Below, piece after piece: positions 16,183 through 19,851 of a DNA stretch of 64,000 nt. The position numbers and the translations under genes are program-made. Origin of the DNA: Escherichia coli (GTDB lineage Bacteria > Pseudomonadota > Gammaproteobacteria > Enterobacterales > Enterobacteriaceae). The stretch lies in assembly GCF_002854065.1 (NCBI RefSeq), contig NZ_CP024147.1; one strand, 5' to 3'. Numbering within the stretch: the first letter of the stretch is position 1; each line of letters begins with the position of its first letter. The notes under the pieces were generated by a model. That model ran no database searches and was not told where the DNA came from. It worked only from the letters and a program-made list of their open reading frames with translations.

Positions 16183-16950
16183 TTACCCCTGTTTTCTCAG
16201 GCGAGTTTCAGACTCACCACGCTGCATTACCCGTTGCAACACTTCCGCTTCCAGCTCCGCTAATCGCACCGACCCTAATCGACGCGGACGAGGGATATCC
16301 ACTGTCAAATCCAGACCAATTTTTCCCTCTTCAATTAATAACACCCGGTCAGCCATTGCTACCGCTTCGCTCACATCATGCGTCACCAACAGTACGGTAA
16401 AGCCGTGCTCCTGCCAAAGTGACACAATCAAATCCTGCATCTCGAGTCGCGTTAAGGCATCCAGCGCCCCGAGCGGTTCATCAAGCAACAATAAACCCGG
16501 TCGATGAATCAACGCTCTTGCCAGCGCCACTCGCTGTTTCTGCCCGCCTGAAAGTGCGGCAGGCCATTCCCCGGCGCGATTCTCCAGTCCTACCGCAGCC
16601 AACGCCCGACGCGCGGCATCGCGCCACTGGCCTTTAAGGCCTAACCCAACGTTATCAATCACCGATTTCCACGGTAGCAGACGCGCATCCTGAAACATCA
16701 TTCGCGTGTCTTCCTGAATTTCAGCCAGCGGTGTGGTGCCCGCTAACACATCGCCAGCGGTTGGCGTTTCCAGACCTGCCAGCAGGCGCAGCAGGGTACT
16801 TTTGCCACCACCGCTGCGGCCCACCACCGCCACAAACTGACCTGCCGGAATATGTAAATCCAGTTGGTTCAGGACGATATTTTCCGCGTAATGTTTGCTT
16901 ACTGCATTGAGCAACAATGGCGTGCCCTGGTTCAGACGAGCAGTATTCAT
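16183..16950 (-). CDS. ssuB: Aliphatic sulfonate ABC transporter ATP-binding protein SsuB
   Basis: Walker [13 protein letters not shown] signature LSGGQKQR, Walker B LLLDEP. Confidence 0.92.
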
Positions 16951-17738
16951 ACCGTGGCCTCCTTCAAATGATAAGCCGGGTTCCAGCGCAACCAGAGGCG
17001 CTCTAACAGCTGCGCGCTGACGTCAGCCAGTTTGCCGAGCAGGGCGTAAAGAATAATGGCGACCACCACCACGTCCGTTTGCAAAAACTCCCGCGCATTC
17101 ATCGCCAGATAACCAATGCCTGAATTGGCAGAAATGGTTTCGGCAACAATCAGCGTCAGCCACATCAGGCCCAACGCAAAACGCACGCCGACCATAATTG
17201 AGGGCAGGGCACCAGGCAGGATCACATGGATAAACAGCGGTATGCCGGATAATCCATAGCTACGCGCCATCTCCACCAACCCGCGATCGATATTACGGAT
17301 GCCATGCCAGGTGTTGATATAAATGGGGAATAGCGTACCGAGCGCCACCAGAAAGATTTTTGCGGATTCATCAATGCCAAACCACAAAATCACCAGCGGG
17401 ATCAGCGCCAGATGCGGCACGTTGCGCAACATCTGAATTGAGGTATCCAGCAGTCGCTCACCCCAGCGTGACAGCCCGCTAATCAGTCCCAAAATCAACC
17501 CCAGCGATCCGCCAATTGAAAAGCCAATCAGCGCCCGCCAGGAGCTGATCGCCAGATGCTGCCACAATTCGCCGCTGGCTGAGAGCGTCCAGAACGCCAT
17601 CACCACCCCTTCCGGTGAGGGCAAAATACGCGTCGACAACCAGCCAACCGAGGAGGCCAGTTGCCACACCGCCACGATGCCCACCGGTAAAAACCAGGGG
17701 GCAACGCGCAATAACCACTTCTTCACTGGCGTTGCCAT
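16947..17738 (-). CDS. ssuC: Aliphatic sulfonate ABC transporter permease SsuC
   Basis: Polytopic membrane protein; 4-nt ATGA overlap with ssuB start. Confidence 0.92.
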
Positions 17739-17749
17739 TATCTTCTTCC

Positions 17750-18895
17750 TTAGCTTTGCGCGACTCTGCGAGGGATAAAATCATTCGCCACCGCTTCGCC
17801 TTGCGGATTCAGCGGCTGCGGCTGGGGAATTTCCGGAATGGCGACATCCAGATGTGGGAACAGCAACTCGCCGACCCGATACGCTTCTTCCAGATGCGGA
17901 TAGCCCGAAAGCATAAAGCTGTCGATGCCAAGCGCGGCATATTCGTTGATTCGCGCAGCGACCGTAGGACCATCGCCCACCAGCGCCGTCCCGGCACCGC
18001 CGCGCACTAAGCCAACGCCCGCCCATAAATTGGGGCTGATCTCCAGATTGTCGCGCTTGCCGTTATGTAGCGCTGCCATTCGCTGTTGCCCCACGGAATC
18101 CGTGCGGGCGAATGCGGCTTGTGCTTTGGCGATAGTCTCATCATCAAGATGCGAGATTAACCGCTCGGCGGCCTGCCACGCTTCGTCGTTAGTTTCACGA
18201 ACAATCACATGCAGACGAATGCCGAAACGAATTTTGCGTCCATGCGCGGCAGCTTTCGCCCGCACTTGTTCGATTTTCTCTTTAACCAGTTCTGGCGGTT
18301 CGCCCCAGGTGAGGTAGAGATCAACTTGTTCTGCCGCCAGCTCCTGGGCGACGTCTGACGATCCGCCAAAGTAAAGCGGAGGATACGGCTGTTGAATCGG
18401 CGGGAAGAGCAGTTTGGCTCCCCGCACATGAATATGTTTACCGTTGAAATCGACGGTTTCCCCCAGCAATAAGCGCCGCCAGACCTGGGTAAATTCCGCC
18501 GAGGCTTCGTAGCGCTCACTATGATCAAGGAACACGCCGTCGCCTGCCAGTTCTTGTGGATCGCTGCCTGTGACCAGGTTAAACAACGCACGTCCATTTG
18601 AGAGACGGTCAAGCGTGGCGGCCTGGCGGGCGGCAACGGTAGGTGAGGTTACGCTGGGACGCAGGGCGACAAGAAACTTCAGCCTCTGCGTCACCGGGAT
18701 CATCGATGCGGCAACCAGCCACGCATCTTCGCAGGAGCGCCCCGTTGGGATCAGCACACCGGTATAGCCAAGACGATCCGCCGCTTGCGCAATTTGTTGC
18801 AGATAACCGTGATCAACCGGGCGTGAACCTTCTTCCGTTCCCAGATAATGCCCGTCACCATGGGTCGGTAAAAACCAGAACATATTCAGACTCAT
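17750..18895 (-). CDS. ssuD: FMNH2-dependent alkanesulfonate monooxygenase SsuD, 381 aa
   Basis: Luciferase-like monooxygenase translation [19 protein letters not shown]... Confidence 0.94.
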
Positions 18896-19851
18896 AATTG
18901 TTTTCCTTCCAGTTGAGTGGGCTGCCAGATGCGTTGGCGAATATCGACTTTTTTCGGCACCAGACGGTTTTCATAAAACAGATCTGCCGTTTGCTGCTGT
19001 AAGGCGGCAACCTCGGCGTTAACCGGTTTGATGGTGGTAGGTGGGCGATGATCTAAGTAAGAGGCAATCACCGGTGCCGGTAAGCCCATCGTTTTTGCCA
19101 GTAAAGCGATGCTTTGCTCGCGCTGGCTGCGGGTTAACGCATCGGCCTCACTAAAGGTTGCCAGTACACCCTGAATAAAAGCGCCGTTTTTTTCTGCATA
19201 GGGGCGAGCTGCCAGATAAAACGCTCCGGTTTGATTGAGATCGGTGCCGTCTTTCAACACCCGCACGCCGCCCTGTAATAATGCAGCGGAGTAGTAGGGA
19301 TCCCAGATAGCCCAGGCGTCAACGTTACCTTGCTGGAACGCGGCGCGGGCATCAGCTGGCGTCAGATAAGTAGGCTGGATGTCAGTAAACTTAAGTCCGG
19401 CCTGGCGTAGTGCGCGCAGTAAAAGATTGTGTGAACTGGAACCTTTCTGGAACGCAACTTTGTGGCCTTTAAGATCGGCTACGGTTTTGATCGGGCTGTT
19501 TTCTGCCACCAGAATCACCTCGGCTTTTGGCTTTGGCGGCTCGACGCCCACATATACCAAATCAGCCCCGGCAGCCTGGGCAAAGATTGGCGGAATATCC
19601 CCGGTACTGCCGAGATCAATACTGCCAACGTTTAACGCCTCAAGCATTTGCGGGCCAGCGGGGAACTCCACCCACGAGATTTTTGTTTGCGGATAGCGTT
19701 TTTCCAGCATTTGGTAATTTTTCGCCAGCACCGAACTGATGTTGCTTTTCTGATAGCCAATCCTTAACGCCTCTGGCGAAGACTCTGCGGCAACCGCGAG
19801 TGTAGAGACGCTAAGTAAACCCGCTAGCGCCAGTTTAATGATCTTACGCAT
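18892..19851 (-). CDS. ssuA: Aliphatic sulfonate periplasmic binding protein SsuA, 319 aa
   Basis: Internal ATG at 19849-19851 gives [21 protein letters not shown] signal peptide; stop overlaps ssuD start (ATGA). Confidence 0.9.

Follow-up and report, generated by a model that had tools for sequence, protein, structure and literature searches.

In the ssuEADCB operon of Escherichia coli the stop and start codons of neighboring genes overlap at three of the four gene junctions, raising the question of whether the translation of each gene is tied to that of the gene before it. We analyzed this operon in a window of 64 kb (the whole stretch of DNA examined), an E. coli chromosome segment that runs from mukB to appB and, one 1.3-kb insertion excepted, is 99.95-99.98% identical to strain 100416 (NZ_CM128593.1). 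The operon lies on the minus strand, flanked by pepN and the elf (ycb) fimbrial genes, with its genes in the order E-A-D-C-B, and its encoded proteins identify it as the ssuEADCB locus for sulfur acquisition from aliphatic sulfonates. An initial annotation had described the layout as the classic pattern of translational coupling. The best explanation, and in our judgment a fairly probable one, is that these are the normal compact junctions of an E. coli polycistronic operon, at which partial termination-reinitiation acts on top of initiation at Shine-Dalgarno (SD) sequences.

The five coding sequences (CDS) are as follows.

19844..20419, minus strand: ssuE, NADPH-dependent FMN reductase, 191 aa; NCBIfam equivalog NF007859 over residues 1-191 of 191, PDB 4PTY over residues 1-191
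18892..19851, minus strand: ssuA, periplasmic sulfonate-binding protein precursor, 319 aa; NCBIfam NF008588 over residues 1-318 of 319
17750..18895, minus strand: ssuD, FMNH2-dependent alkanesulfonate monooxygenase, 381 aa; NCBIfam TIGR03565 and NF001939, PDB 1NQK over residues 1-381 and 1M41 over residues 2-381
16947..17738, minus strand: ssuC, ATP-binding cassette (ABC) transporter permease, 263 aa; NCBIfam equivalog NF008470 over residues 1-263 of 263
16183..16950, minus strand: ssuB, ABC transporter ATPase, 255 aa; NCBIfam equivalog NF008420

All five proteins score above the NCBIfam curated cut-offs over essentially their full length, and SsuD and SsuE are almost identical to the corresponding PDB chains. 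The locus is nearly universal in the species, being found in 5,424 of 5,426 complete genomes, and ssuEADCB is listed as an experimentally characterised polycistronic unit (Huber 2023, PMC10666635).

The initial annotation had placed an 8-nucleotide (nt) overlap at ssuE/ssuA, 4-nt overlaps at ssuA/ssuD and ssuC/ssuB, and an 11-nt gap at ssuD/ssuC, within a range (16947-19851) that extends from the last junction to the first. Each of these distances is exact, and the gene names and start choices behind them are correct.

19844..19851, minus strand: ssuE/ssuA overlap, ATGCGTAA in minus-strand reading (19851..19844), with the ssuA ATG at 19851..19849 and the ssuE TAA at 19846..19844
18892..18895, minus strand: ssuA/ssuD overlap, ATGA (18895..18892), common to the ssuA stop and the ssuD start
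17739..17749, minus strand: ssuD-ssuC spacer, GGAAGAAGATA (17749..17739), 11 nt between the ssuD TAA stop (17752..17750) and the ssuC start (17738)
16947..16950, minus strand: ssuC/ssuB overlap, ATGA (16950..16947), common to the ssuC stop and the ssuB start

At the first junction the ssuE frame ends GGT AAT GCC CAT GCG TAA and the ssuA frame begins ATG CGT AAG. Three of the junctions (-8, -4, -4) fall within the co-directional distance class of about -8 to +10 nt; at +11, ssuD/ssuC lies 1 nt beyond the class limit of Huber 2023, inside which the K-12 value of +10 falls.

Every downstream start is preceded at 6-7 nt by an SD-like motif, three of which lie within the upstream gene, and that of ssuC sits directly behind the ssuD stop codon (TAAGGAAG). 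Their predicted pairing energies, with that of the first gene, are given here.

20430..20425, minus strand: ssuE SD, AAGGAG, -9.3 kcal/mol
19859..19863, minus strand: ssuA SD, GAGGT, within the ssuE CDS, -7.2 kcal/mol, spacer 6
18904..18910, minus strand: ssuD SD-like motif, GGAAGGA, within the ssuA CDS, -5.7 kcal/mol, spacer 7
17751..17745, minus strand: ssuC SD, AAGGAAG, overlapping the ssuD TAA stop, -6.0 kcal/mol
16958..16964, minus strand: ssuB SD, AAGGAGG, strong, within the ssuC CDS, -11.7 kcal/mol, spacer 6

Opening is predicted to be easy at the ribosome-binding sites (RBSs) of ssuD and ssuB (3rd and 12th percentile of operon positions) and to cost 18.7 kcal/mol at that of ssuC (82nd percentile).

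Is such a layout out of the ordinary? Using the annotation of the near-identical genome, verified on the window sequence, we counted 38 co-directional CDS pairs in the window. Nine of them overlap, seven at -4 (hyaA/B, hyaC/D, hyaD/E, hyaE/F, pqiB/C, ssuA/D and ssuC/B), one at -8 and one at -10, and seven more lie at +9 to +13. The pqiB/pqiC junction (39139-39142) is an ATGA overlap, and appC/appB, uup/rlmKL and ycbU/elfG all stand at +11, which puts them with ssuD/ssuC in the +9 to +12 class. When the non-ssu junctions of the window at 25 nt or less are taken as the reference (6 of 17 overlapping), the chance of finding at least three overlaps among four junctions is about 0.13 by our own arithmetic; three overlaps in ssu are not unusual. 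The same holds genome-wide, the commonest configuration among 2,987 unidirectional E. coli K-12 pairs being -4, followed by -1 and -8, with 707 pairs at -8 to +6 and a separate small peak of 203 pairs at +9 to +12 (Huber 2023, PMC10666635). The supplementary tables of that study give the K-12 distances as ssuE>ssuA -8, ssuA>ssuD -4, ssuD>ssuC +10 and ssuC>ssuB -4, so the ssu overlaps are already on record in a published genome-wide table; there ssuC, as part of the polycistronic ssuEADCB transcript, is assigned to the +9 to +12 class, and COG2141@COG0600 (SsuD>TauC) carries the value 9 in the distance column.

The overlaps are stable among the alleles sampled within the species. We compared six E. 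coli alleles, which vary at 12.1% of positions in the operon, chiefly in the third base of codons, and all six have the three overlaps. In the 40 nt around each junction, ssuC/ssuB has no segregating site and ssuA/ssuD has one, against an operon median of four; the neighborhoods of ssuE/ssuA and ssuD/ssuC are variable (8 and 6 sites). The ssuD/ssuC spacer varies among strains in both sequence and length, being 10 or 11 nt long, which accounts for the published K-12 value of +10. This length polymorphism is a new, if modest, addition to the record.

The locus as a whole is unusually polymorphic. Only 8 of 5,424 genomes are at least 99% identical to the present allele, 1,199 E. coli genomes are only 90-95% identical over 4.7 kb of the locus, and ssuE nucleotide identity falls to 89.8% among the six sampled alleles; ancient alleles or recombination are possible causes. 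Public E. coli assemblies, outside the window, also encode an SsuD in which 36 residues are duplicated in tandem within the protein, an SsuA'-SsuD fusion in which a deletion in ssuA shifts into the ssuD frame and reads through the SD and ATGA, and an SsuD-SsuC fusion formed by an internal deletion (P0001, P0003, P0009). These rearranged genes are either real variants or assembly errors.

Across species the four junctions have different histories. A scan with SsuD, using one genome per species, returned 80 loci. About 40 of these are Pseudomonas loci of the msuD type (66-67% identity, without ssuACB) and were excluded from the junction statistics. The start-picking heuristic is probably wrong for Pantoea sp. 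1.19 and for two Paenibacillus loci (ssuD>ssuC -32 to -35), and no conclusion draws on Betaproteobacteria distances with GTG or TTG starts, which are unreliable. The distances in nucleotides are as follows.

Enterobacteriaceae (Citrobacter, Enterobacter, Leclercia, Pluralibacter, Cedecea): ssuE>ssuA -8 in 12/12; ssuA>ssuD -4 in 12/12; ssuD>ssuC +7 to +11; ssuC>ssuB -4 in 11/12 (one +3)
Erwiniaceae: ssuE>ssuA +10 to +18; ssuA>ssuD +9 to +13 (one -1); ssuD>ssuC +9 to +11 (one -1, one start uncertain); ssuC>ssuB -4 in 5/5 scorable, including Pantoea stewartii, whose ssuC has an internal stop
Yersiniaceae: ssuE>ssuA +17 to +33; ssuA>ssuD +16 to +59; ssuD>ssuC +11; ssuC>ssuB -4
Pseudomonas ssu loci: ssuE>ssuA +90 to +101; ssuA>ssuD +25; ssuD>ssuC +9; ssuC>ssuB -4

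The ssuC/ssuB ATGA is thus conserved across orders: it is kept in all Yersiniaceae and Pseudomonas ssu loci and in one Neisseriales genome, Stenoxybacter, and short gaps take its place in most Betaproteobacteria and in Paenibacillus. Its SD stays at a fixed distance in other genera while the C-terminal residues of SsuC change (KEATV, KEAHA, QEAKA, KGGSV), which argues that selection acts on the initiation signal and not on the peptide; the comparison indicates that this geometry is not a product of random drift. The ssuE/ssuA and ssuA/ssuD overlaps are conserved within the Enterobacteriaceae only, the sole exception being a 1-nt ssuA/ssuD overlap in Erwinia psidii, and from this distribution we read them as a derived state of that family. 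At ssuE/ssuA all 12 loci have the ATGNNTAA geometry with varying middle bases (ATGCTTAA, ATGTTTAA; ATGCGTAA in the present allele). At ssuD/ssuC, nearly all loci from Enterobacterales and Pseudomonas have a gap of +7 to +11 in which the SD follows the stop directly (TAAGGAG or TGAGGAG); Erwinia psidii (-1) and the one uncertain Pantoea start depart from this. Bradyrhizobium has ATGA at ssuD/ssuC and, in one genome, also at ssuA/ssuD. SD energies, averaged over 23 loci, are -7.1 to -9.3 kcal/mol ahead of the four downstream starts, as compared with -2.4 to -3.3 kcal/mol inside the upstream CDS. This junction-by-junction pattern of a deep ssuC/ssuB ATGA, an ssuD/ssuC gap and overlaps found only in Enterobacteriaceae is the second new, and again modest, addition.

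Two further observations came from the same scan. The excluded Pseudomonas loci (L033-L071) encode an SsuD paralogue, mostly with an SsuE-like reductase gene just upstream, and none adjoins ssuA, ssuC or ssuB, an arrangement that fits methanesulfonate (msuED-type) rather than ssu; Pseudomonas sp. dw_612 has both types, one ssu (L027) and one msuD-like (L033). The internal stop in Pantoea stewartii ssuC (L018, 7160-7651) is premature, and in Pantoea sp. 1.19 ssuB (L019, 7954-8675) is split over two reading frames, so that these plant-associated strains are probably losing the ssu transporter.

How would such junctions work? We propose that a ribosome terminating on an upstream ssu gene would have the next SD and start only a few nucleotides away. 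This would apply to ssuA, ssuD and ssuB, whose starts sit on or just before the preceding stop with the SD embedded in the upstream CDS, and also to ssuC, whose SD begins inside the ssuD stop codon. Because of this proximity, termination-reinitiation may supply part of downstream initiation, added to de novo initiation at the SD, and the output of the downstream gene would be tied to translation of the upstream one. The effect would be most likely to matter at ssuC-ssuB, which encode subunits of one ABC transporter; the ssuE-ssuA and ssuA-ssuD overlaps may be lineage-specific compaction with a small benefit, if any.

Reporter studies of other genes bear on this proposal. In dual-reporter assays four of five ATGA pairs were coupled, three of them strictly and menD-menH at about 60% (Huber 2019, PMC6728339). 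Reinitiation falls steeply with stop-to-start distance and is gene-specific at +2 to +14 nt, subunits of heteromeric complexes are 4.5-fold enriched at short distances, and ssuC-ssuB is scored "complex: yes" (Huber 2023, PMC10666635). The "classic pattern" of the initial annotation therefore stands as a description of the layout, since coupling by termination-reinitiation has been demonstrated at -4 and -8 junctions of other E. coli pairs (Huber 2019/2023); coupling in ssu itself, and its strength, we infer by analogy and regard as plausible but only partly supported. It appears most credible at ssuC/ssuB, because the two products are subunits of one transporter, the overlap is shared by several orders and the junction does not vary among the E. 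coli alleles. A functional requirement for the ssuE/ssuA and ssuA/ssuD overlaps is doubtful, because sister families manage with gaps. The initial annotation had also implied a contrast between three coupled junctions and one uncoupled. This contrast is drawn too sharply: with the ssuC SD directly behind the ssuD stop, a terminating ribosome would sit on it, and to call the 11-nt junction uncoupled would go too far. Genes differed so strongly in coupling at +11 to +20 that this class was left out of the published comparison of coupled and independent pairs (Huber 2023, PMC10666635).

Several points weigh against partial termination-reinitiation in ssu. Strict 1:1 coupling through the whole operon would be unexpected, because a cell usually needs more of a periplasmic binding protein than of the transporter that it serves. 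The open predicted RBSs of ssuD and ssuB and the very strong ssuB SD mean that independent initiation could dominate. Erwiniaceae, Yersiniaceae and Pseudomonas, whose gene order is unchanged, do without the ssuE/ssuA and ssuA/ssuD overlaps (the Erwinia psidii nucleotide apart) and have gaps of about +9 to +100 instead. A search of the available literature found no experiment on, or published statement of, ssu translational coupling. Neither ssuE/ssuA nor ssuA/ssuD encodes partners of one complex (Huber 2023, PMC10666635), and bioB-bioF, an ATGA pair, showed no coupling, so that geometry alone is insufficient for it (Huber 2019, PMC6728339).

The strongest alternative draws on much of the same evidence. 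The overlaps could be neutral by-products of genome compaction, arising as starts and stops drift or are replaced nearby, with translation of each ssu gene starting at its own SD regardless of the gene before it, and the junction playing no part in regulation. We consider this possible, though less likely than partial reinitiation. Consistent with it are the confinement of two overlaps to the Enterobacteriaceae, the shift in overlap position between lineages seen in Bradyrhizobium, the presence of an SD motif at every downstream gene with open predicted sites at ssuD and ssuB, and the uncoupled bioB-bioF pair; a simulation study explains overlap length distributions by start and stop replacement (PMC3887535). 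Neutral drift sits less easily with the retention of the ssuC/ssuB ATGA across orders of Gammaproteobacteria while neighboring codons changed, with the persistence of the -8 geometry in Enterobacteriaceae despite varying bases, and with the coupling of most tested E. coli ATGA pairs.

A more elaborate possibility, which we regard as unlikely, is stepwise tuning specific to each junction. An ancient ssuC/ssuB ATGA would be combined with an ssuD/ssuC gap, its SD directly after the stop, that serves as a deliberate step-down from abundant soluble SsuE, SsuA and SsuD to a scarce membrane transporter, and the ssuE/ssuA and ssuA/ssuD overlaps would have been gained only in Enterobacteriaceae. Were this the case, the gain and loss of overlaps would let evolution adjust the ratios at which the genes of an operon are expressed.

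Coupling through mRNA structure, in which downstream RBSs would lie in hairpins opened only by ribosomes on the upstream gene, is very improbable. The opening energy of the ssuC RBS, higher than at the other sites, is in its favor, but the 120 nt around the ssuC start fold no better than shuffled sequence (z = -0.54), which speaks against a hairpin masking this site, and the ssuD and ssuB sites are predicted to be open. An Rfam scan of 15500-21500 at E <= 1 for RNA motifs at the junctions gave zero matches.

The start codons on which the overlaps depend are well anchored. All five CDS coordinate pairs are the same in the annotation by NCBI's Prokaryotic Genome Annotation Pipeline (PGAP) of a genome 100% identical over the ssu stretch, and PGAP gives the geometry -8, -4, -4 in all five other, divergent E. 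coli alleles as well. The annotated starts of ssuE, ssuD, ssuC and ssuB are the first start codons of their open frames; only ssuA has in-frame ATGs further upstream, at 19857 and 19893. SD spacing would be 0 nt for the former and 14 nt for the latter, as compared with an optimal 6 nt for the chosen start at 19851, and the ATG at 19857 is missing from E. coli N96 and from Citrobacter. The NCBIfam alignments of SsuE, SsuA, SsuC and SsuB begin at residue 1, and PDB chain 1M41 corresponds to residues 2-381 of this SsuD reading frame. The ssuD gene of Serratia and Pseudomonas is free of overlap and has its own SD after a non-coding spacer, and yet the protein still begins MSLN, which anchors the E. 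coli ssuD start. The N-termini of SsuE and SsuD were reportedly sequenced from 2-D gels by van der Ploeg et al. in their 1999 paper on the operon, a result that is not counted as evidence here. That the overlaps are annotation artefacts, with the true ssuA, ssuD or ssuB starts elsewhere and the genes not overlapping, is scarcely credible against this record, even given the upstream ATGs of ssuA, a second ATG at codon 5 of ssuD, and the fact that no direct start-site data were found for ssuA, ssuC or ssuB.

The significance of these junctions beyond correct annotation is small. The overlaps lend support to the annotated starts. The comparison also illustrates neatly, on a small scale, the published enrichment of short overlaps between genes for subunits of the same complex: permease/ATPase is the one overlap that is deeply conserved. 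A nonsense or frameshift mutation in an upstream ssu gene could lower the expression of the next gene, which is relevant for the reading of ssu knock-outs.

Other features of the operon boundaries and of the window can be stated briefly. The ssuEADCB operon is characterized by a single transcript from a sulfate-starvation (Cbl/CysB-dependent) promoter upstream of ssuE, and ssu is repressed where sulfate or cysteine is plentiful. In the present sequence, consensus scans found a single weak sigma-70-like match upstream of ssuE and, inside the operon, no convincing promoter and no strong terminator. A terminator-like site lies beyond the last gene.

16148..16177, minus strand: terminator-like hairpin directly 3' of ssuB, in the 42-nt gap to convergent pepN; 13-bp stem with 9 G-C pairs and a T-rich tail

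No site of comparable strength was found within the operon, where matches are stems of 5-7 pairs. The pepN-ssuB intergenic region (16141-16182) is the short form, 42 nt with one hairpin; in many E. coli strains the region between these convergent genes is longer by about 164 bases, as in the 206-nt gap of locus L088 (142-347), and the additional sequence is probably a repetitive extragenic element. Elsewhere in the window, a 1,331-bp insertion at 22588-23918, absent from the near-identical NZ_CM128593.1, interrupts the fimbrial usher gene elfC. It contains two overlapping transposase open reading frames (HTH_Tnp_1, then the rve integrase core), is flanked by a 5-bp direct repeat, CCATC, and is an IS3-family element whose size and ends fit IS2. 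The elfC gene also has a 1-nt indel relative to that reference, in which it is annotated as frameshifted, and zapC (30195-30737; 180 codons, MRIKPDD...) is intact here and annotated there as a pseudogene with an internal stop.

The ssu junctions are best placed by comparison with known systems. E. coli K-12 ssuEADCB (Huber 2023, PMC10666635) has the same five genes in the same order with the same junction classes (-8, -4, -4), and the proteins of a K-12-like allele are 96-100% identical to those described here; its ssuD>ssuC spacer is 10 nt long instead of 11. Within the window, the hyaABCDEF operon (56393-61860) has ATGA at four of its five junctions, a likeness that marks the pattern as routine in this genome, although its function is that of hydrogenase 1 and its non-overlapped junction is an 18-nt gap. 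The coupled pairs hyfH-hyfI, astD-astB, ydbH-ynbE and menD-menH (Huber 2019/2023) resemble the ssu pairs in being co-directional, in the short overlap of stop and start, and in an SD that lies within the upstream gene. Dual reporters demonstrated termination-reinitiation for them, ssu not being among the tested pairs, and ssuE/ssuA differs from the ATGA pairs in its rarer -8 overlap. A more distant parallel is the ssuA-ssuC-ssuB-type ABC transporter of Haloferax volcanii (HVO_1603 to HVO_1601), in which permease and ATPase genes likewise overlap by 4 nt and are scored as a heteromeric complex; it differs from ssu in being archaeal, in its order A-C-B without intervening monooxygenase or reductase genes, and in a substrate assignment that is only probable.

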